Virus record (IMG/VR): IMGVR_UViG_2563366824_000008
Length of the DNA: 41,432 nucleotides
From: a virus
Taxonomy: Duplodnaviria > Heunggongvirae > Uroviricota > Caudoviricetes
Strand: one strand, 5' to 3'
Shown: in pieces, positions 1 to 38,247 of the stretch
How the letters are laid out: every line of letters begins with the position of its first letter
Numbering within the stretch: the stretch's first letter is position 1
Program-made: the position numbers and the translations under genes
Notes under the pieces: model-generated
What the model was told of the DNA's origin: nothing
Seen by the model: the letters and a program-made list of their open reading frames with translations, nothing else
The model's database searches: none

Positions 1-516
1 ATGAAATTTAAAAAATGTCTTCTGCCTGTGGCAATGTTAGCGTCATTCACTCTGGCAGGATGCCAGTCAAATGCTGATGATCATGCCGCCGATGTTTATC
101 AAACCGATCAACTGAATACCAAACAAGAAACTAAAACCGTTAATATTATTTCCATTCTTCCCGCAAAAGTTGCCGTAGACAACTCCCAAAATAAACGAAA
201 CGCACAAGCCTTCGGCGCGCTTATTGGTGCAGTCGCTGGCGGTGTTATTGGCCACAACGTCGGGTCTGGCAGCAATTCCGGAACGACGGCAGGTGCAGTT
301 GGCGGCGGAGCTGTTGGCGCGGCAGCGGGTTCTATGGTGAATGATAAAACCTTAGTGGAAGGTGTTTCTCTAACGTATAAGGAAGGCACCAAAGTGTATA
401 CCTCCACCCAGGTGGGTAAAGAGTGCCAGTTTACGACAGGTTTAGCCGTTGTTATTACCACGACGTATAACGAAACGCGTATTCAGCCAAATACCAAATG
501 TCCTGAAAAGAGCTAA
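1..516 (+). CDS. lipoprotein with glycine-zipper segment (probable chromosomal backbone gene)
   Basis: 171-aa ORF; N-terminal signal peptide with lipobox LAGC; Gly/Ala-rich stretch GAVAGGVIGH typical of glycine-zipper outer-membrane lipoproteins; lies left of the prophage junction. Confidence 0.6.
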   Translation: MKFKKCLLPVAMLASFTLAGCQSNADDHAADVYQTDQLNTKQETKTVNIISILPAKVAVDNSQNKRNAQAFGALIGAVAGGVIGHNVGSGSNSGTTAGAVGGGAVGAAAGSMVNDKTLVEGVSLTYKEGTKVYTSTQVGKECQFTTGLAVVITTTYNETRIQPNTKCPEKS

Positions 517-6899: not shown

Positions 6900-6914
6900 T
6901 TACCTTTGCGGTAA
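6900..6914. promoter_or_regulatory. candidate repressor operator TTACCTTTGCGGTAA inside a 12-bp inverted repeat
   Basis: Perfect motif copy lying in the loop between CAAGAGGAGTGC (6883..6894) and GCACTCCTCTTG (6924..6935). Confidence 0.45.
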
Positions 6915-7006
6915 ATTTACATCGCACTCCTCTTGTGCCATAGTAATCGGGCACTGGCAAAATCCAGTGCCGGGATTGGCGTCCCGGATTACTAAAAGGC
7001 GTATTC

Positions 7007-7026
7007 ACCGCGCAAGCGGTTTTTTT
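7007..7026 (+). terminator. rho-independent terminator (GNRA-loop hairpin plus T-run)
   Basis: ACCGC-GCAA-GCGGT followed by TTTTTT; about 140 nt after the 6611..6868 stop. Confidence 0.5.
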
Positions 7027-7183
7027 ATGCGTATAGCACGGCCACATTCGTATTATGGTGGGCTGTGTGGGGGCACCGAAAGGTGCGCCGGGTCCTTTTA
7101 GCCGGTTACGCCAACCCTGCACAGTTCACCACCAACCGATTGGCGTCGGTAGTGGTGATTAACCAGACTAAAAGGTAACCACT

Positions 7184-7879
7184 ATGACAGCTACAAAAAG
7201 CACGTCCATTTTTTCTTTCGAATCCCAAGCCGATATACGAGTAATCGTCATTAATGGTGAGCCATGGTTTATCGCTTCAGATGTTTGTCGGGCTATAGGC
7301 ATAGCAAATCATCGAGATGCTGTTAGAAAACTTGATGATGATGAGAAGGGCGTCGCTTCAACCGACACCCCTGGCGGTGAGCAAGAATCGATCATCATCT
7401 CCGAGTCAGGCCTCTACACACTGATCCTCCGCTGCCGCGACGCAGTGACACCAGGCACTATCCCCTACCGCTTTCGTAAATGGGTTACAGGTGAGGTTCT
7501 TCCTCAGATCCGCCGCACCGGAAGTTACATTAAAAACTCGCTCCCGCAGGAAGAACGCATAAAGATAGTTGCCGACCAGGTAGCCAACGCCACAGCATCA
7601 GCAGTGATGCAGGCAATGAAGATAGAGAACAAAACCTACAGTGCCCCACTGAAGCCCGGCTACCGCAGCCTGATTCACTCGCCGTCGGGTGTTCTCGGCC
7701 TGACGGAGAACTCACTGCTGATGAATCTGCTGAACCAGTTGCAGGACGACGGGCACGACGTATCGGGCGCGGCGGCGGAGCTGACCACCATGTTCTGCTA
7801 CATCGTCGGTGTGAGCAAATGCCTGCGTGATATCCAGACCCACGCGGAGTACATCAACGACAAAGCAGGGTTCTTCTGA
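7184..7879 (+). CDS. ant: antirepressor with BRO-N (KilA-N-like) N-terminal domain
   Basis: 231 aa; N-terminal region (VIVINGEPWFIASDVCRAIG...) matches the BRO-N/antirepressor signature as remembered; RBS AAAAGGTAA; C-terminal domain paralogous to the 6611 product. Confidence 0.75.
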   Translation: MTATKSTSIFSFESQADIRVIVINGEPWFIASDVCRAIGIANHRDAVRKLDDDEKGVASTDTPGGEQESIIISESGLYTLILRCRDAVTPGTIPYRFRKWVTGEVLPQIRRTGSYIKNSLPQEERIKIVADQVANATASAVMQAMKIENKTYSAPLKPGYRSLIHSPSGVLGLTENSLLMNLLNQLQDDGHDVSGAAAELTTMFCYIVGVSKCLRDIQTHAEYINDKAGFF

Positions 7880-8204: not shown

Positions 8205-8724
8205 TAAAAATCAAATTGTCAGATATAAGGGTCGAGTATTGCATACGCAAAATTTCTCGGCCCTTTGTGCATCTGATCTTGAGCTGAAGAAAGTATCTGA
8301 TGCCTTTGCCCAGTATTGGAAAACGGGATACCATCCATCTCTTGGTAAAGATGCTGCATTTGCTCGTCCGACAGAAATGCTTAAACTAAATGTCAGGCAT
8401 ACTCATGTCGATAACCAAGACTATATTCCAGAAGATAGTGATAAAAAACACACTGGTAAAAAATCATCTTGGGATGCATGGAAAAATATAGCGTCTGTAC
8501 AAGTAAAATGCATACCAACAAGTGATTGCTTTTTAGTTTATTCGGTAAATCACAATCGTGATGCGCTGGTTATGTTTTTTGTTGACGCAGATGCTCACAA
8601 CATAACTGAGCAAGAAGAGTTTAAAGAGGAAGCAATCACTATCAGTTATCAATTCTTTGAGAAAACAAAAACAGAACCAATGCCTTTAGAAGAAGATCTT
8701 TTTTCTGATAAATGGAAGGAATAG
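8179..8724 (+). CDS. candidate toxin, possibly YafO-like
   Basis: Start taken at ATG 8179 (RBS AAGGAAAA) within ORF 8152..8724; 181 aa; segments DAF-QYWKTG..P.LGKDAAF, HTHVD and CFLVYS resemble my recollection of the YafO ribosome-dependent mRNA interferase family; not verified. Confidence 0.4.
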   Translation: MSSSASQNDKNQIVRYKGRVLHTQNFSALCASDLELKKVSDAFAQYWKTGYHPSLGKDAAFARPTEMLKLNVRHTHVDNQDYIPEDSDKKHTGKKSSWDAWKNIASVQVKCIPTSDCFLVYSVNHNRDALVMFFVDADAHNITEQEEFKEEAITISYQFFEKTKTEPMPLEEDLFSDKWKE

Positions 8725-8816
8725 CCCGCAGCGCAGGCTTTTTTGTGGACGAAACAAAAGTCAGTGCTACACTCATTGACGCCACATTGAGGTGGCTTAT
8801 AGATGGAAATTTCACA

Positions 8817-8978
8817 ATGAAAAAAGCATTTGCTGCACTGTTCGTTTTGTTGTCTCTGGTAGCTTCAACTCAGGCCTTTGCCGGTCGTTGTCAGCACGAC
8901 AGCGATACTGCTGCAGACGGCTCCCGCTGCGGTGGGCGTTCTGCGGATTCCCGCCCGGGCGGCGGTGGCATTCGTTAA
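8817..8978 (+). CDS. small secreted Cys/Gly-rich peptide
   Basis: Internal Met of ORF 8712..8978 begins a classic signal peptide MKKAFAALFVLLSLVASTQAFA; about 31-aa mature part; weak RBS. Confidence 0.4.
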   Translation: MKKAFAALFVLLSLVASTQAFAGRCQHDSDTAADGSRCGGRSADSRPGGGGIR

Positions 8979-8984
8979 AAAAAC

Positions 8985-9000
8985 AAGGCCGCGAAAGCGG
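8985..9000 (+). terminator. GNRA-loop hairpin ending the plus-strand insert
   Basis: GGCCGC-GAAA-GCGGCC perfect hairpin just after the 8978 stop; followed by the GTGACATGTCAC palindrome rather than a T-run. Confidence 0.35.
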
Positions 9001-9003
9001 CCT

Positions 9004-9015
9004 GTGACATGTCAC
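9004..9015. repeat. 12-bp perfect palindrome GTGACATGTCAC, copy 1 of 3
   Basis: Exact 12-mer also at 26499..26510 and 28764..28775; each copy sits just past the stop of a minus-strand gene. Confidence 0.8.
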
Positions 9016-9018
9016 GAC

Positions 9019-9432
9019 TTATAAAGATGACTGATATTTTACAACTCTGTTCATGGCATCTTTTTTCACCGAGCTGATATCAGTTCTTATTTTGGCTTCG
9101 TCATTACTGCTTATCATGCTATTAATTTTTTGCACTGACATGCCGTTTCTTTCAGCCATTGCACATACAGCAGCATCGTATGAAGAACTCGCTGCGATGG
9201 ATATCACCTTGTTACACTCAAACACAGCACCTTCAGCAATATCAGATGCCGATGAGGCTGGCTTGGTATAAGTCTTGACGTAGTGATCAATACAACTATC
9301 CTTCGCCGTCTTGGCAAGAGAAAAATCCATTTTAACTTTGTCGCAATATGCCTTATCAACACCGTCATAAACATCATAGGATGTCGAGCAAGCGGATATC
9401 AAAAATACCGATAACAGCAATAATTCCTTCAT
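9019..9432 (-). CDS. phage lipoprotein of unknown function
   Basis: 137 aa; signal peptide with lipobox LISACS; last gene of the virion operon before the plus-strand insert. Confidence 0.55.
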   Translation of the reverse strand: MKELLLLSVFLISACSTSYDVYDGVDKAYCDKVKMDFSLAKTAKDSCIDHYVKTYTKPASSASDIAEGAVFECNKVISIAASSSYDAAVCAMAERNGMSVQKINSMISSNDEAKIRTDISSVKKDAMNRVVKYQSSL

Positions 9433-25847: not shown

Positions 25848-25924
25848 GTGGCATTAGCTCAGTTGGACAGAGCAACCGCCTTCTAAGCGGTTGGTCGCAG
25901 GTTCGAATCCTGCATGCCACGCCA
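25848..25924 (+). tRNA. tRNA-Arg, anticodon UCU (argU-like)
   Basis: 77-nt cloverleaf folded by hand: acceptor GTGGCAT/ATGCCAC, D arm GCTC/GAGC, anticodon stem ACCGC/GCGGT with loop CTTCTAA, T arm GCAGG-TTCGAAT-CCTGC, discriminator G, encoded CCA. Confidence 0.9.
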
Positions 25925-26122: not shown

Positions 26123-26494
26123 ATGAACGACCAGCAAATCGAAAAAGAAATCGTTGAGAAAGGCAAAACGGCACCGCGCGTTACGCCAGACCATATCGAA
26201 GGCATTATTGCTCAGGAGGCATATTTCACAGCAGAAGATGGTGCCTTTGGCAAAGCCATAAAAGCGAAACATACTGGCGGAGAGGTAAACTACCAGCCGC
26301 ACGAATCACTTTCTCTGCTGACGTTCTGCGTCCTGGTGCTGCGCAACGGCTTCACCGTCACCGGAGAGAGCGCCTGTGCAAGCCAGGAAAACTTTGATGC
26401 AGAAATTGGTCGGAAGATTGCCCGGCAGAATGCTGTAAACAAAATCTGGATGCTCGAAGGTTACTTGCTGAAGCAGAAGCTAAGCGAGCAATAA
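26123..26494 (+). CDS. hypothetical phage protein (possibly Gp49-like)
   Basis: 123 aa; RBS AAGGTGAG; on the opposite strand to flanking terL and portal; family assignment from memory only. Confidence 0.6.
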   Translation: MNDQQIEKEIVEKGKTAPRVTPDHIEGIIAQEAYFTAEDGAFGKAIKAKHTGGEVNYQPHESLSLLTFCVLVLRNGFTVTGESACASQENFDAEIGRKIARQNAVNKIWMLEGYLLKQKLSEQ

Positions 26495-26498
26495 CACC

Positions 26499-26510
26499 GT
26501 GACATGTCAC
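26499..26510. repeat. 12-bp perfect palindrome GTGACATGTCAC, copy 2 of 3
   Basis: Exact repeat; 5 nt after the 26494 stop and about 75 nt after the terL stop. Confidence 0.8.
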
Positions 26511-26512
26511 AA

Positions 26513-26540
26513 ACAGCCAGCCGATGAGCTGGCTTTGTTT
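26513..26540 (+). terminator. rho-independent terminator of the tRNA insert
   Basis: AGCCAGC-cgatga-GCTGGCT followed by TTGTTTT. Confidence 0.55.
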
Positions 26541-26584
26541 TATCCTCATCAGAGGATATCAACGACATTATCCCCACCAGCGGA

Positions 26585-28060
26585 TTAAGCATATGGATCG
26601 TAATCTGTGATGGCCTTGCCTTGCTGGTTCTGCTGCCCGGGAATTCGCAGACGCTTCGACACAGGGAACGCAAACGTCAGCAGTAGCGCATCGCCTTTAC
26701 CAGGAGAACGCCCAAGCCGCTCCTTGATATCTTCCTTCGGTTCGATAACGATTTTACCGTCCACTCGAACTTTGTACTCTGCCGCAGACAGGTCGTCCGC
26801 TGTTTCCTGGTCATCCAGCATGCCGCCCAGCCTCAGCCATGTCTTACATGAGTTGAACATCTCCCCACGCTTGTTAAGCATCTGCGGGTCAGTGGACGCA
26901 CCGCCGAACGGAACAAGTTGCCATGTACGTCCCCAGCCATCACCGATTGACTTCAAACCGGTTCCGTAACCGAAGTCGATGAACACCGCGTCAGCCTGAT
27001 ACTGGTCTTCAAAGTCAGCGATACGCTTCGCCATAATCAGATCGTCGGTTGTCTTGTTGCCAGTCCATAGCACCTTACTGTGCAGCCCCTGCCGCAGGTA
27101 TATCGCCGCGTCATCAACGCCTGAATATGCCGGGTCAACACCGATTATCACCGGAGCATGCGCCACCTGCGCAGCGGTTACCACCCGTTTCATTGCCTCA
27201 TCAGTAAGACCGGTAGGGATAAACTGCAATTCAGATGCATCAGGGAATATGCCGCGCACACGGATTTTAACGAAGTCGCTGTCTTCCCCGTAGTCATCAA
27301 CCCATTTCTGCAACTGCTGTTTGTTAGTGCCTTCCACCGTCCGGCTGTCAATCTGCGCAGTTTTCCAGCGGTGTTTATATTTGCGGAAACATTCACGGAA
27401 TCGCCCGGTATTACGCGTCGGGTTTCCGAACGCCACCCAGATAATCTCAGTGTCTTCGTCCGTTAGCGCACCTTCGGCAACTTCCCACACCAGATCCGCA
27501 ATATTCGACGCTTCATCGAATACCACGATGATGCGTTTGCGCTCGTTGTGTAGTCCGGCGAATGCCTCAGTGTTGTGCTCAGACCAGGGGATTGCGTCAG
27601 CTCGCCACCGCTTGTCGTGTCCAGGGTCATTGCTGTACATCGCGGTAGCTGTACAGGTAAACCAGTCTTTCGTGATAGCAAGGTTTGACCACTTGATAAT
27701 TTCCGGCCAGGTCTTCGTTCGTAGCTGGTTGTCGGTGTTGGCGGTCACCACGACCTTACAATCCTCGCAAGTGGACATGCCCCAGTTGATCAGCATTGAG
27801 ATGAATGCGGATTTACCAATACCGTGACCCGAAGCACGTGCCAGCATAAGCGGCTGATAGCGCGTCTCTGGATTCTGCAGGTGATCACGTATCTCTCGGA
27901 ACGCATCGGCCTGCCACTGACGTGGACCGGTGGCATGTGCCAGTTCAGTACCCTCTTCCCCCCACGGGAACGCATAGAGGGCATAGCCAAGCGGATCGTG
28001 AGTGAACCCTGCAATATCCTCGATCAACTGCTCTTCAGGAGATAACGCTGTATCTGTCAC
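26585..28060 (-). CDS. terL: terminase large subunit
   Basis: 491 aa; Walker A-like GHGIGKS; acidic ATPase motif VVFDEA; C-terminal nuclease-like region; 4-nt overlap with terS. Confidence 0.85.
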   Translation of the reverse strand: MTDTALSPEEQLIEDIAGFTHDPLGYALYAFPWGEEGTELAHATGPRQWQADAFREIRDHLQNPETRYQPLMLARASGHGIGKSAFISMLINWGMSTCEDCKVVVTANTDNQLRTKTWPEIIKWSNLAITKDWFTCTATAMYSNDPGHDKRWRADAIPWSEHNTEAFAGLHNERKRIIVVFDEASNIADLVWEVAEGALTDEDTEIIWVAFGNPTRNTGRFRECFRKYKHRWKTAQIDSRTVEGTNKQQLQKWVDDYGEDSDFVKIRVRGIFPDASELQFIPTGLTDEAMKRVVTAAQVAHAPVIIGVDPAYSGVDDAAIYLRQGLHSKVLWTGNKTTDDLIMAKRIADFEDQYQADAVFIDFGYGTGLKSIGDGWGRTWQLVPFGGASTDPQMLNKRGEMFNSCKTWLRLGGMLDDQETADDLSAAEYKVRVDGKIVIEPKEDIKERLGRSPGKGDALLLTFAFPVSKRLRIPGQQNQQGKAITDYDPYA

Positions 28061-28653
28061 TGATTACCATCCTGACGTTCTTTGAGTCGCTTCCTGGCTG
28101 CTGCTATGCGATCAGCAATTGTCACATTCACATTAACATCCAGACGTTCTTTGAACGCGTTGACATCAACATGCTTACCAATCAGTTCTAGGTTCTTCAC
28201 CTTGTCAGGCCATTTAATTTTTTTGAGGATTGTCTCTATCGAATCCTCGTTCATGTTCATGATGGTCGATGACAGATCAAAGCCACTAAGCGTAGTGCGC
28301 CAGATTTTCGGCCACTCACGGATTGGTTTAAGGCTCCCATCGTCGTTGAGGATATCGATCACGTCCATCTGGTCGATCTCCACCAGGCGCATGAGAACGT
28401 AATCAGCACTGACGCGCATTCGTTTGTTGCGCTCCTCCATCAACTCGGCAATCCGTTTTTGAATGCGTTCATCGCGCATCATGACACTGGCTTTAACTGC
28501 CGCTGTATTTGGGGAAAATCCTGCGTTAATCGCTGCCTGAGTCTGGTTTTCAGGCGTTTTGATGTATGACTGGCAATAAGCCTCCTGCATTGCTGTTAGT
28601 GGCTTAAATTGCGTTGATTTGCGTTTATAGGTTTTAGGTTCAGCAGGCATCAT
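28057..28653 (-). CDS. terS: terminase small subunit
   Basis: Start set at internal ATG-ATG with GGTGG RBS (ORF 28057..28731); DNA-binding N-terminal region; directly upstream of terL. Confidence 0.65.
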   Translation of the reverse strand: MMPAEPKTYKRKSTQFKPLTAMQEAYCQSYIKTPENQTQAAINAGFSPNTAAVKASVMMRDERIQKRIAELMEERNKRMRVSADYVLMRLVEIDQMDVIDILNDDGSLKPIREWPKIWRTTLSGFDLSSTIMNMNEDSIETILKKIKWPDKVKNLELIGKHVDVNAFKERLDVNVNVTIADRIAAARKRLKERQDGNQ

Positions 28654-28763
28654 AACCACCGTGGTAATAGTTACCGTTGTGGTAATAGTACCATGCAAAA
28701 TAAAGCCGCCATAGTTGGCGGCAGTATTCAAAACCCATCAAATTCATCATGCATAATCTACTC

Positions 28764-28775
28764 GTGACATGTCAC
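28764..28775. repeat. 12-bp perfect palindrome GTGACATGTCAC, copy 3 of 3
   Basis: Exact repeat overlapping the stop of the 28772..29113 gene, about 30 nt upstream of the terS ORF. Confidence 0.8.
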
Positions 28776-29113
28776 ACTATTAATTTCGTTTCATGCCAGC
28801 CTTTAGTCACCCAGCATTGCGAGTCACCATTACACGGGCATGAATTTACAGGAACTCTCTCGCCGCACTTACCGCAACGTTTTCTGCTGATCGATTTTAT
28901 ACGCCAGTGCACGCGTGCATCATCCTGGCGGATCAGTAACGCTATATACTCACCAAATTCGTAAGGCGCACGCCCGGGGCGACGCGTGGCACAGTTACGC
29001 TCCAGCATTTCAATTTCCTGAGCATCAAGCACAATCTCCAGCTTACGCACACCAGATGCAGCTTGTCTGGCTCTCTGAGCGGCTTTGCGCTCTGCTGCTG
29101 ATTTAGCCATCAA
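28772..29113 (-). CDS. zinc-ribbon protein, candidate late-gene regulator
   Basis: 113 aa; C-terminal CGKCG...SCPCNGDSQC cysteine cluster; last early gene before terS. Confidence 0.45.
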   Translation of the reverse strand: MMAKSAAERKAAQRARQAASGVRKLEIVLDAQEIEMLERNCATRRPGRAPYEFGEYIALLIRQDDARVHWRIKSISRKRCGKCGERVPVNSCPCNGDSQCWVTKGWHETKLIV

Positions 29114-30115: not shown

Positions 30116-30813
30116 TCACTCTCCTTTGATGCGAATGCCAGCGGCGCGGATTGCAGCGATGACCTCAGAAACTTTGTATGCCATTACCGTTTGGTAATCC
30201 TCGTGAAAATCTGTTCGATGAAGCATGCTGCTACGTTCTGGGAGCGATATTTCCCGTGCTTCCAGTTCTGCTATGCGCTTCTCTGCGGATTCCAGCGCCG
30301 CAACCAATTCGTCTACAGTTCCGGCAGCTTGCAGTGCGTAATCGGTAATAGCCATCTCATGATCAATTTCAGTACCGTTCTCATTCGTTGAGGTGATAGC
30401 AAAATAATCAGAGTCGATTTCGTTATCAGCTAAGTGGCGTAGCGTATCGGCAACAAGCCGGCCGTTTTCGATTAGCAGCTTCCCAACCGTAAGAGCAATT
30501 TCCTCGTTCTCCTGGTCGCGGGATTTGATGTACTGCTGGTTTCTTTCCCGTTCATCCAGAAGCGCCAGCACAGTAGCCGGATTGGCTGCGGCGATGAATT
30601 CAGCATTGGCCTGCTGTTCCATTTGGAAATCTTCATCGAAACCGCTTTCAGGATGCGCTCCTTCAATTCTGCAAATGGGAATATATCCAGCAACTTCACG
30701 ATGAATTAGCGCATCATCACCATCAAATCGGCTCTCTCCATATTCGAGCGACCACTCACCACACGTTGCTTTCTCTGCCTTTTCACGCAATGCCTGATAG
30801 TCAATCTTGTTCA
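30116..30813 (-). CDS. hypothetical early protein, coiled-coil
   Basis: Start set at GTG with GGGAGA RBS, just past the upstream stop (ORF 30116..30895). Confidence 0.45.
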
Positions 30814-32099: not shown

Positions 32100-32900
32100 T
32101 TACTTGATAAATCCTGCCGCCTTTCCCCGCCTGTATTCCTCCATCAGCCACTGCGCCGGTGTTATTCCCCCGAGGGTGGCGGCGTTAGGCATGCACCCGA
32201 AACTTCGCCCTGGTGGATGGTAAACGTCTCTCCCTGTGTCCGGAGGTGTACTCATGGGCTCTGGCTTTGCCTGTATGCTGATCACCGGATCGGGTATCTG
32301 CTGTCCGGAAGCCACCTTTTTCGCCCAATCATCGAGCAACCTGCGCGCGTGTTTCTCAACCTCAATCTCGCTAAGCTGGCGCTGATACATTGCACGGCGG
32401 GTATCACATACGACCCAGTACATAACCGGATGCCGCCACGGGAATCTTTCGGGACCACCAGGATATAAACTTTTTTCCTTGCTGTACCGGTGAAACTCCG
32501 CCATCACATCGTCAATGGTGACGCCAAGAACCATCTTGCTGTCTTTGCACCACTTGATGAATTGCCCTGGCGACGGCCAGAACGGAGATTCACTGGCGCG
32601 GGCGTGGCGCATACCAGCAGAAACCTGTTCACGGGTTCGGATCCCCCCTTCGGCAAACGCAGCAATCCACTGCTGTTTTGCAGCGACTTCCTGCTCTGGC
32701 GTCTTCAGGTTGGTTACCACTGCCGCCGGAAACAGTTGTTTCAGCTGTTTGAAAAGGGCATCAACAAGCCTCTCTGCTGACATGTTCACCACATTGTCAT
32801 TGTTGACGTACTGATGCTCATAACCTGACATGCGAGAAAGGGCTTCTCCGTCACGGTTTTGTATCGCGGTAAAAACGTTGTTCACAAGAAATCCTCCCAT
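32100..32900 (-). CDS. replication protein P-like (DnaB helicase loader)
   Basis: 266 aa; segment QQWIAAFAEGGIRTREQVSAGMRHAR...PFWPSPGQFIKWC aligns with lambda P as I recall it. Confidence 0.7.
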   Translation of the reverse strand: MGGFLVNNVFTAIQNRDGEALSRMSGYEHQYVNNDNVVNMSAERLVDALFKQLKQLFPAAVVTNLKTPEQEVAAKQQWIAAFAEGGIRTREQVSAGMRHARASESPFWPSPGQFIKWCKDSKMVLGVTIDDVMAEFHRYSKEKSLYPGGPERFPWRHPVMYWVVCDTRRAMYQRQLSEIEVEKHARRLLDDWAKKVASGQQIPDPVISIQAKPEPMSTPPDTGRDVYHPPGRSFGCMPNAATLGGITPAQWLMEEYRRGKAAGFIK

Positions 32901-33697
32901 GCTTCAGGGCTGTTCCAGTGCGGAACGTTGTTATCAGGTAATGTTGATTGCTTCTGTCTGCTAATCTGCAGCCGCCTTGCCAGCTTCTGCTCCCACTGTG
33001 CCTGATGGTATGCCTTACCCTCAGCCATCCAGTAAATTCTGAACTCTGCAAGTTCCTGTGCTGTTGGCAGACTGTCCAGGTAGATCCCCTGCAATGAGCT
33101 TTTCCGAAGAAAGTCATCTGATGGCTGCCATTGTTCATGCATGACAAATTTGCCTAATTGCCCTGGCCCACCAGGAGGAACAAAGTTATTCATCACGGCG
33201 TTGTTTGCGCCGGGGTCATGAGGCACAGAACCTCGGGTTTTTGTCCTGCTCTCCCTCTCTTGGTTAAATGACTGGTTATATGACTGGTTCTGGATCCCGT
33301 TTTTGGGATCATTCAACATCCCGTTTTTGGGATCATTCAACATCCCGTTTTTGGGTATATTCCCGTTTTCGGGAACATTACCGTTTTCGGGTTCATTGCT
33401 CCCTTTCCGGTTGCCTTTAATGTTCCCGTTTTTGGTTATATTAAGAGAGAAAACCCGCACTCTTTTCGTCGCTCCCTTTCTCTCTCCGGTATCTGAAATA
33501 AGCCCCATTTTCATGAGCGATATAAGTCCGGCCTGCACGGTTTTTTTATTCAGGCAAGTGTCTTTAACGAGGCGTTCTATGCTGGGGTAGCAGAGGTTAT
33601 ATTCATCGGCTCTGTCAGCCATCGAGAGCAGTATGAGCTTTAATGATGAGCTACCTGGATCTGTCTCCCAGGCCCAATCTGTTGCATGTCTGCTCAT
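32882..33697 (-). CDS. replication initiator O-like protein with in-gene origin iterons
   Basis: 271 aa; N-terminal winged-helix-like domain; central repetitive linker (PKNGMLND x2 and related) encoded by DNA direct repeats; C-terminal domain upstream of the P-like gene. Confidence 0.65.
   Translation of the reverse strand: MSRHATDWAWETDPGSSSLKLILLSMADRADEYNLCYPSIERLVKDTCLNKKTVQAGLISLMKMGLISDTGERKGATKRVRVFSLNITKNGNIKGNRKGSNEPENGNVPENGNIPKNGMLNDPKNGMLNDPKNGIQNQSYNQSFNQERESRTKTRGSVPHDPGANNAVMNNFVPPGGPGQLGKFVMHEQWQPSDDFLRKSSLQGIYLDSLPTAQELAEFRIYWMAEGKAYHQAQWEQKLARRLQISRQKQSTLPDNNVPHWNSPEAWEDFL
33294..33445. repeat. iteron array (candidate origin of replication)
   Basis: Two perfect 24-bp units ATCCCGTTTTTGGGATCATTCAAC (33294..33317, 33318..33341) followed by 3-4 degenerate CCCGTTTT(T/C)GGG-containing units. 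Confidence 0.6.
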
Positions 33698-34014: not shown

Positions 34015-34042
34015 ATATGAAAAGACCGCCGGATGGCGGTCT
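34015..34042 (-). terminator. weak rho-independent terminator after the cro-like gene
   Basis: Minus strand: AGACCGCC-atcc-GGCGGTCT then TTTTC. Confidence 0.4.
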
Positions 34043-35090: not shown

Positions 35091-35167
35091 TTACCTTATG
35101 GGTAATTTTTTTAACTCATATCTATTGACATCAAACCAGATACGCATAATCATTACCTCAACGGTAA
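35091..35167 (+). promoter_or_regulatory. rightward early promoter flanked by two operators (oL/pL analogue)
   Basis: TTACCTTATGGGTAA (35091..35105), TTGACA (35125..35130), CATAAT (35145..35150), TTACCTCAACGGTAA (35153..35167). Confidence 0.55.
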
Positions 35168-37947: not shown

Positions 37948-38247
37948 GTGAGAAAGTTAAGCCGACTTGAAAAATATCACATGAATAAGGTTTCAATGCG
38001 CAGTCCGTCAAAGATTGTCGCCGTTACTCCTGCGGCGATAGAGATCGAAAAACGCGCGATTGAAAGAGAGAAAAAAGGGCAGTTCCGCATTGCCGCTCAC
38101 CTTTGGCTTCAGTGTATGGATGTTGCTTCTGGTGATGTTGAACGTGCAAGGATCGCGGTTCGCAGGGACCAATGTATCACAAAAGGTAACGGCCTTCGCC
38201 GTGGCGACTATAGCGGCATAGGATGTTGCGGGGTGGTTTATGAATAA
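37948..38247 (+). CDS. small regulator-like protein, possibly PerC family
   Basis: 99 aa (GTG start); segment KKGQFRIAAHLWLQCM loosely resembles PerC-type activators; overlaps the next gene (ATGAATAA). Confidence 0.35.
   Translation: MRKLSRLEKYHMNKVSMRSPSKIVAVTPAAIEIEKRAIEREKKGQFRIAAHLWLQCMDVASGDVERARIAVRRDQCITKGNGLRRGDYSGIGCCGVVYE

Follow-up and report, generated by a model that had tools for sequence, protein, structure and literature searches.

A palindrome on the stop codon of a small phage gene marks ends of transcription units in Uetakevirus prophages and may be the binding site of the gene's zinc-knuckle product

In lambda and in phages of the Q21 and Q82 families, the antiterminator Q is encoded by the last early gene, and its own DNA site lies directly downstream, at a late promoter with a promoter-proximal pause, and is followed by a terminator (qut, pR′, tR′); Q of lambda contains a zinc finger. 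P2 Ogr, P4 Delta and 186 B (PF04606) are small zinc-binding regulators of temperate phages, with cysteines spaced CxxC-x22-CxxxxC and a dyad about 55 bp before their late promoters; they activate late transcription via the alpha subunit of RNA polymerase. Ribbon-helix-helix (RHH) proteins, among them P22 Arc, Mnt, CopG, MetJ, omega, ParG and RepB-RCR_reg, are mostly repressors, occur in phages and plasmids and read short symmetric DNA sites. An operator can also lie at or over the end of the regulator's gene: O3 is located at the 3′ end of lacI, and LacI sitting there obstructs polymerase during elongation, which yields LacI tagged by transfer-messenger RNA and provides feedback without a private promoter. 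CodY, CcpA and PurR are further roadblock repressors. In Gram-positive phages the genes of RinA, LtrC and ArpU lie directly upstream of terS, at the early/late junction, and RinA-type late activators bind the promoter upstream of terS (PMC3152322). TraR, lambda Orf73 and DksA are C4 zinc proteins that bind the secondary channel of RNA polymerase; TraR requires an N-terminal DxxDxA motif for its function and has a zinc site of the form CxxC-x17-CxxC (PMC9239242). Here we analysed a viral DNA stretch of 41,432 nt (IMG/VR record IMGVR_UViG_2563366824_000008; the window, taken at its full length), in which a gene for a 112-aa protein of the PHROG 536 family (28772..29110, minus strand) ends within a perfect palindrome.

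Megablast of the region matched phiV10, TL-2011b, the O157 typing phages 9 and 10 and related phages, and the gene order agrees with the annotated phiV10 and epsilon15 genomes; because of these similarities, the window is assigned to a Uetakevirus (epsilon15/phiV10-type) prophage. The early-right and late genes are both on the minus strand, in the order repressor, cro-like gene, O-like and P-like replication genes, nin-like genes, the 112-aa gene, terS and terL, followed by a moron island, the portal to internal virion protein genes, a second moron island, tailspike and lysis genes. In agreement with a first-pass annotation made from the sequence alone, the gene sits at the early/late boundary, as the last one of the early-right operon and directly before terS. 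That annotation had given it as 28772..29113, coding for 113 aa; this open reading frame (ORF) lies on the minus strand and opens with a TTG. The ORF itself is real, as judged from a full-length profile match, the family alignment and a structural model, and the start was corrected: since all of the 720 homologues begin with MAKS and are about 112 aa long, the true start is read as the ATG at 29110, giving 112 aa. Residues 1-111 matched positions 2-114 of the 115 in the phrog_536 profile (E 2.4e-54), and 55 out of 55 diverse relatives matched PHROG 536 too. The family includes phiV10 p55, epsilon15 gp49 and N15 gp46, and carries the label 'transcriptional regulator', for which we found no experimental support; nor did we find literature on the function of the family or on the palindrome sequences in a phage context. 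The protein gave no significant family in Pfam and NCBIfam and no significant match in a PDB sequence search. Its homologues form 720 clusters at 90% identity, every one of them named 'hypothetical', and an exhaustive profile search of 1.84 billion representatives returned only 179 clusters at 50% identity. They are carried by Uetakeviruses, N15-type phage-plasmids, and P2-like, lambdoid, Vibrio and Aeromonas phages. A true plasmid context (relaxosome or partition) was considered and rejected, the plasmid matches being mostly Klebsiella and E. coli records of about 50-55 kb that match N15-like phage-plasmids.

The first-pass annotation had pointed out that one copy of a 12-bp palindrome overlaps the stop codon of the gene, and this proved the key clue. 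The core of this home site (site a), GTGACATGTCAC, occupies 28764-28775 and holds the stop codon TGA (28772-28774); with its pyrimidine and purine flanks the element measures 14 bp (28763..28776), the TGA lies in the left half-site, and the whole is the probable cognate binding site of the gene product. The window contains three exact copies (9004, 26499 and 28764), all of them intergenic, with site a overlapping just the stop codon. Dinucleotide shuffling gave an expected count of 0.04 for GTGACNNGTCAC, and three copies were reached in none of 100 shuffles. We then examined 27 prophage loci, gathered with a 10-sequence sub-alignment from Citrobacter, Klebsiella, Pantoea, Xenorhabdus, Serratia, Yersinia and other genera. 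GTGACNNGTCAC begins 1 nt before the TGA, placing it inside the half-site, in 15 of them, and lies +5 to +13 nt from the stop in seven further loci, so that 22/27 have the site within 13 nt; two more carry a one-mismatch copy at the stop. The chance expectation per locus for a 40-nt window is about 4e-5. Epsilon15 has the identical 12-mer over the gp49 stop, and phiV10 and BUCT554 have one-mismatch versions.

Home-site relatives also occur in unrelated phages whose proteins are 30-45% identical. N15 gp46 and its counterpart in Klebsiella KpLi5 have GTGACTGGTCAC on the TGA; a Yersinia P2-like myovirus has GTGACGCGTCAC on the TGA and a second half-copy 21 nt further; Pantoea AH07 has GTGACCTGTCAC on the TGA; and in Chlobot the site lies 6 nt past a TAA. 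In Vibrio K303, a ParA-bearing phage-plasmid type, the site is found about 230 nt downstream of the gene; a further copy precedes the terS ATG by 19 nt, and there is a third at another place. A logo of 28 distinct home sites reads Y-GTGAC-(A>N)(T>N)-GTCAC-R, with invariant half-sites, symmetric flanks and a variable central dinucleotide. The consensus YGTGAC-N2-GTCACR is tied to the gene across podo-, sipho- and myoviruses and phage-plasmids, in lineages whose neighbourhoods have nothing else in common. No conserved gene neighbour was found downstream; because the downstream genes differ between lineages, the palindrome is the only conserved partner of the gene. This pattern fits duplex DNA that would be read by a two-fold symmetric dimer. 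An RNA hairpin was rejected as an explanation in view of the 2-nt loop, the invariant half-sites and the lack of stem covariation. We also rejected the -35 element of a conserved promoter, since a properly spaced -10-like element exists in some relatives only; in the window a weak promoter-like GTGACA-18-CATGAT overlaps site a, and it is not conserved in most relatives. We propose GTGAC-N2-GTCAC at or on the stop as a criterion for the family, one that is ours and not a published one. As a separate observation, in Citrobacter, Pseudocitrobacter and Erwinia prophages (L015 10349-10420, L016 10349-10420 and L021 10553-10620) a strong sigma-70 promoter with a LexA box stands between the home palindrome and terS, the palindrome staying with the upstream gene; in L016 a UmuD-like gene follows this insert.

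The three sites hold the same positions in every Uetakevirus examined, and they mark ends of transcription units, not regions upstream of late promoters. The terminator ending the early-right operon (28695..28722, minus strand; GCCGCCaactatGGCGGC then TTTATTTT, with the stem at 28722..28705) lies 41 nt downstream of the home palindrome. This clear hairpin between the gene and terS had gone unmentioned in the first pass; the three it had listed were all found again, after the cro-like gene (34042..34023), after the P-like gene (GCGCgataGCGC then T7, near 32094-32075) and after the tailspike gene (CAGGGAGGA...TCCTCCCTG then TTTTATT, 3494-3454). The early-operon terminator after site a is kept in epsilon15 and in loci L017, L018 and L022, with a gap of 23-42 nt in Uetakeviruses. 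Site b (26499..26510) lies between the end of terL at 26585 (minus strand) and a moron gene of the Phage_gp49_66 family (N4 gp49 / Sf6 gene 66; 26123..26494, plus strand), which runs opposite to the late genes in the interval between terL and portal. Read along the moron strand, the stop is followed by the palindrome, 4 nt, the hairpin and a T-tract, the moron terminator being at 26515..26543 (plus strand; AGCCAGCcgatgaGCTGGCT then TTGTTTTAT). In the late direction the hairpin leads into GTTT and the palindrome, without a T-tract, and across Uetakeviruses this linker reads (G/A)(G/A/T)TT. The location of site b and its 4-nt distance from the hairpin are kept in phiV10, epsilon15, BUCT554 and six prophage loci of several genera, and this distance does not change between the window, epsilon15 and 6/7 further genomes examined; in the seventh, L029 (Samsonia), the site is retained in a different arrangement.

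Site c (9004..9015) is located 3 nt after the stop of a 137-aa lipoprotein-like ORF (9019..9432, minus strand) and abuts the terminator of the portal-to-internal-virion-protein operon (terminator c, 8976..9003, minus strand; AGGCCGCtttcGCGGCCT then TGTTTTTTT). This terminator has no T-tract for the converging plus strand, on which moron genes approach it, among them a small ORF (8712-8978, plus strand) whose product has a signal-peptide-like stretch. In Uetakeviruses site c follows the final structural-operon gene at 0-3 nt and precedes a strong terminator by 0-2 nt, with equivalents in phiV10 (19493), epsilon15 (19517, overlapping the gp18 TGA) and BUCT554. Both b and c stand 0-4 nt from rho-independent hairpins, on the T-tract-free side, at convergent junctions, and this spacing is conserved across genera. 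The sites also coincide with junctions of conserved and variable DNA. The slot of the lipoprotein-like ORF is filled by a different gene in phiV10, in epsilon15 and in the window, which suggests a variable moron slot.

To describe the protein, we aligned 55 family members down to about 27% identity. Family motifs are an N-terminal ERKxxQRxR, PY...EYIxxLI and C-x2-C-G-x2-LP...C...GD-x2-C-W, all present in the window protein, whose cysteines are arranged C79-x2-C82-x8-C91-x-C93-x5-C99. In the alignment C79 and C82 are invariant, C99, P87 and G95 are at least 90% conserved, R8, R13, E54 and L59 are also kept, and a third cysteine at the 91/93 position recurs among the displayed rows; the family consensus is CxxC-x7-10-C-x5-8-C. 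Because the cysteines are conserved down to about 27% identity, a Cys4 zinc knuckle is taken to be a feature of the family on the ground of conservation and not of the pattern alone, which bears out the zinc-binding C-terminal cluster that the first pass had seen. A shallow alignment (30 sequences, at least 75% identity) gave an unusable AlphaFold2 model (mean predicted local distance difference test, pLDDT, 55.6), and the 55-sequence alignment gave one of pLDDT 91.9, with helices at 5-19, 30-42, 52-74 and 100-108 and an extended segment at 20-29. Foldseek returned no significant fold match in PDB and BFVD, the sole strong BFVD match being a 46-aa fragment of the PHROG 536 family itself.

Several weak signals converge on an RHH unit at residues ~20-62, whose membership is statistically unproven. 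They comprise Pfam matches to RHH_5 (0.013), RepB-RCR_reg (0.028) and RHH_1 (0.071), each in just one or two members, weak Foldseek matches to 5ytp (probability 0.8) and the RHH ParB 3no7 (E 8), and a strand-helix-helix order in the model, where helices 30-42 and 52-74 follow the extended segment. A weak match to YbfE (0.054) and an hhalign alignment of the strand and helix A with CopG point the same way. RHH dimers insert a two-stranded sheet into the major groove of a symmetric site, and the symmetry of the palindrome is compatible with this. The predicted layout common to the family is thus a basic N-terminal helix, an RHH-like unit and the Cys4 zinc knuckle. It shares with RHH repressors a predicted strand-helix-helix after a basic arm, the short symmetric site and the phage or plasmid setting; it differs from them in the extra zinc knuckle, in the long second helix and in having its sites at 3′ ends and not at promoters. 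The C-terminal half (helix, then C-x2-C-G-x2-[IL]-P...G...C) resembles TraR: the family profile picked up TraR (E 0.071) and YbiI (E 0.09) among PDB sequences, and hhalign scored 45% with a single sequence and 67.8% (E 4.9e-5) with a TraR alignment. The zinc half aligns with TraR residues 6-65, Y50 and E54 match Y9 and E13 at conserved positions, and TraR homologues are common in phage early regions. However, no family member matched PF01258 at E<=0.1 and Foldseek did not recover TraR. The DxxDxA tip is absent anywhere in the family consensus, where the aligned stretch is RRPGRAPYE, and the second CxxC of CxxC-x17-CxxC is missing, ligands 3 and 4 being at C91/93 and C99; the predicted N-terminal DNA-binding half is an addition. 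We rejected TraR membership on the DxxDxA motif and the cysteine spacing despite the hhalign probability of 68%, and regard the likeness as a lead and not as a family assignment.

The first-pass annotation had likened the protein to Ogr/Delta late activators and had recognized no N or Q homologue. The second point held: a scan of ten early-region ORFs with PHROGs at E<=1e-5 matched replication, recombination, repressor and PerC-like families, and N or Q was not among them. The first did not. PF04606 gave no match with the protein (E<=1) or with its 55 relatives (E<=0.1), while gp54 of the Yersinia P2-like phage, the positive control, matched Ogr_Delta with E 3.9e-21, and the observed cysteine spacing differs from that of Ogr/Delta. 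Pfam and PHROG families of Q likewise gave no match with the protein or its relatives, the Q-like ORF of the lambdoid prophage L019 serving as positive control (3.9e-63). The Yersinia phage carries its PHROG 536 protein together with that true Ogr_Delta protein, and N15, KpLi5 and L019 carry theirs together with Q. Ogr/Delta, Q and N were rejected as families for the protein, and because it coexists with Ogr_Delta and Q, the family does not generally replace these classical late regulators. The PerC-family 'transcriptional activator' of the scan (PF06069, phrog_868; 37948-38247, plus strand), in the leftward early operon, is another candidate regulator; this family is usually tied to the control of host virulence genes.

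Because of the linkage between gene and site and the symmetry of the site, we consider it quite likely that the protein is a DNA-binding dimer and that the palindrome is its site. A symmetric dimer would occupy the 14-bp YGTGAC-N2-GTCACR (proposed target DNA TGTGACATGTCACG), recognized through the N-terminal basic helix (R8, R13) and the RHH-like unit, and the Cys4 knuckle would form a second module, possibly touching polymerase. A regulatory role of some sort at the early/late boundary is plausible; the direction of the effect and the route of feedback are speculative. Our tentative preference is for a barrier or insulator at operon ends combined with 3′ autoregulation, in which the bound dimer would block elongating RNA polymerase at operon boundaries. 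At the home site, polymerase halted ahead of the stop codon would leave a truncated, stop-less mRNA and hence negative feedback specific to the gene, which would be suitable because the gene has no promoter of its own; the same barrier would curb early-operon read-through in the direction of terS. For sites b and c, the dimer would supply the missing direction of one-sided T-tract terminators and insulate the converging late and moron units. LacI at O3 offers a parallel for an operator over the regulator's end, although the fold here is unrelated, the stop codon lies inside a half-site that is conserved across phage lineages, and the sites are coupled to intrinsic terminators.

A barrier fits every context in which the sites were found, and it agrees with how RHH proteins usually act. 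Beyond the convergent junctions, these contexts include sites inside operons of N15, Chlobot and Vibrio K303 that precede ribosome-binding sites and lie 10-19 nt ahead of start codons. N15 and KpLi5 have three identical 12-mers each, whose central TG is specific to their lineage; these 12-mers have stayed the same while the DNA around them diverged. Of the two further exact copies of GTGACTGGTCAC in each phage (N15, L042 28550 and 33237; KpLi5, L043 10831 and 15814), one is about 620 nt within repA, and the other stands where the repA operon ends, ahead of the promoter of the icd/antirepressor (anti-immunity) operon. In the P2-like prophages L035 and L037, the gene-site-terminator unit faces convergent portal and terminase genes, and a barrier is favoured there because read-through into those genes would be pointless.

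Several points weigh against this barrier reading. Just upstream of a strong terminator, as in the sense direction at sites a and c, a barrier looks redundant. Polymerase would stop about 10-15 nt before it, so that the hairpin could not help reverse termination, and for the same reason the conserved spacing of 0-4 nt is not obviously explained. In Vibrio K303, where sites stand just before terS and the lysis genes, the product of a lytic early gene would repress those genes during lytic growth, which is counter-intuitive. A possible TraR-like zinc module (hhalign 68%) would be needless for a passive barrier. The RHH assignment is itself weak, as hhalign gave 3.8% against CopG, though the expected strand and helix A were aligned.

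We next considered that the protein might be a site-loaded antiterminator, with the logic of Q or N and an unrelated family: polymerase crossing the palindrome would pick up the dimer and pass the adjacent terminator, and as the protein accumulates the early transcript would extend into terS-terL and the structural transcript past terminator c towards the tailspike and lysis genes. The gene has Q's position, the last early gene ahead of late genes, and the order gene, site, terminator recurs in Uetakeviruses and ahead of ninB in the lambdoid loci L019, L020, L023 and L026 (L019 with a Q-like gene further downstream); N15 also has a site upstream of a terminator. The Vibrio K303 order of gene, site, about 240 nt, terminator and holin resembles that of lambda Q, pR′, tR′ and S. 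Strong terminators that were conditional would give the pairing of site and terminator a purpose, the TraR-like C-terminal half (E 0.07; hhalign 68%, E 5e-5) hints at polymerase contact, and the weak GTGACA-18-CATGAT overlaps site a. However, unlike Q the protein has a proposed site that is a perfect palindrome with no conserved promoter or sigma-dependent pause element beside it, no sequence or profile match to Q, and extra sites at convergent junctions and inside genes. In P2-like phages the terminator at the home site faces convergent late genes, so that read-through would be harmful, and at site b the order suits the moron strand only, where read-through would run antisense into terL. At several home sites the ribosome-binding site of the next gene follows directly, without a terminator. 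The family also coexists with Q, and terS has its own candidate promoter and operators. We hold antitermination, the chief rival of the barrier, to be doubtful.

Somewhat more doubtful still is that the protein is a DNA-tethered, distantly TraR-derived factor contacting RNA polymerase, which would set termination or read-through site by site. Such a factor would be delivered to elongating polymerase by the symmetric site beside intrinsic terminators, and gene, site and terminator together would form a portable 'conditional operon boundary' cassette exchanged among temperate-phage morphotypes.

A non-transcriptional role in replication control, partition or genome organisation, packaging, or recombination at module boundaries appears improbable. 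RHH proteins do include centromere-binding and replication-control proteins, and one relative is annotated as RepB-like; the repA site is conserved in N15 and KpLi5, the gene comes directly after replication gene A in P2-like phages, sites lie at conserved/variable DNA junctions, and Vibrio K303 bears ParA. Yet no partner ATPase, nuclease or recombinase is conserved beside the gene, integrated Uetakevirus prophages need no partition, three sites over about 20 kb are unlike pac or cos, and the tight coupling to terminators points to transcription.

The proposal of the first-pass annotation, a zinc-finger activator of the Ogr/Delta kind that would recruit RNA polymerase upstream of the terS and holin operons, had in its favour that a small zinc-binding protein is encoded just upstream of terS, the position also held by the RinA-family late activators of Gram-positive phages (PMC3152322). 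The centre of site a lies, by estimate, ~90 bp (window) or ~70 bp (epsilon15) before the candidate terS start, within the range of a class I activator, and in N15 the likely antirepressor-operon promoter has a site centred about 65 bp before it. Several results nevertheless make an activator very improbable. Besides the missing PF04606 match, the different cysteine pattern and the presence of a true Ogr_Delta protein in the same phage, the sites are at 3′ ends and do not precede late promoters by about 55 bp. Near sites b and c neither strand offers a suitably spaced promoter, and upstream of the portal, tailspike and lysis operons there are CI-type operators instead of the palindrome. A terminator hairpin separates site a from the terS promoter. 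We detected no homology with RinA, LtrC or ArpU, and here a terminator comes after the site.

The region upstream of terS bears on the same point. The gene (28057..28650, minus strand) matches Terminase_2 (PF03592, E 1.4e-29) and is annotated with 594 nt in TL-2011b and 597 nt in epsilon15; a start at ATG 28650, giving 197 aa as in these two phages, is more likely than the TTG at 28731 used in the annotation of phiV10 p01, whose 224-aa ORF crosses the terminator hairpin and operators (28651-28731). Within 28653..28693 (minus strand) we read a candidate promoter whose extended -10 is TGgTACTAT (28693..28685); two TTACC-N5-GGTAA dyads (28685-28671 and 28667-28653) overlap this promoter. In epsilon15 the counterpart of the -10, TGtTACTAT, lies beside an annotated repressor site (12..27). 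terS thus appears to have its own promoter under CI-type operators, and a late activator is for that reason not obviously needed. Dyads of this kind, the terS pair included, are not confined to the immunity region and occur at 35091/35153, 34331/34379, 31986/32048, 30183, 28653/28671, 25511, 6520, 6900 and 7950. They precede the left-early, right-early, nin, terS, portal and tailspike operons, and in epsilon15 also the lysis operon; the one at 30183 is inside an early ORF, and those at 6900 and 7950 are in the moron island. The GenBank record of epsilon15 annotates the equivalent dyads as repressor binding sites. A motif cATATGTGGTT (minus strand; 33982, 32013, 25466 and 6487) stands before four late-strand operons, about 40 nt downstream of the first operator in the three that were inspected (nin, portal and tailspike), and is also found in phiV10 and epsilon15; it could be a promoter or leader element. 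All in all, this arrangement suggests a dispersed-operator regulon like that of phage P1, in which each operon would have its own repressible promoter and no late activator would be needed. The intergenic RNA at 28680-28780 (minus strand) folds with -30.5 kcal/mol (z = -3.0), the -10 region of terS pairing with bases that precede the terminator; the spacer is not the same in epsilon15.

That another host or phage factor binds the palindrome, for instance as part of a terminator, and that its association with the gene is hitch-hiking, is hardly credible: the half-site resembles by eye a CRP half-site (TGTGA) and a -35 element (TGACA), but the association persists across lineages with otherwise unrelated neighbourhoods, the spacing is TGA-N4-TCA and not the TGA-N6-TCA of CRP/FNR sites, and N15 and KpLi5 each carry three identical copies with their own central TG.

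Some further features of the window were noted. The second moron island, between the structural operon and the tailspike gene, holds a P1 immI-like module (6951-7879, plus strand) made up of isrK (6951-7026), a C4 antisense RNA (7051-7136) and a Bro-N/ANT-type antirepressor ORF (7184..7879), all on the plus strand. A tRNA-Arg(TCT) gene (25848-25924, plus strand) lies opposite to the late genes between terL and the portal operon. In the O-like gene (32882..33697, minus strand) two tandem copies of TGGGATCATTCAACATCCCGTTTTTGGG, at 33304-33347 in plus-strand coordinates, are probably origin iterons.

A small DNA-binding regulator in a phage is of a known kind; the operator on the stop codon and the pairing with one-directional terminators are the unusual features. 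If the proposal is true, a widespread, unstudied phage family gains a function and a specified DNA target, and there is an explanation for the three terminator-side palindromes conserved in genomes of the epsilon15/phiV10 type, phages that serve for O157 detection and typing. An operator that includes the stop codon of its regulator gene and is kept across phage morphotypes, and a protein site that would stand in for the missing T-tract of a one-directional terminator are both designs that may serve as compact, portable transcriptional insulators or switches.

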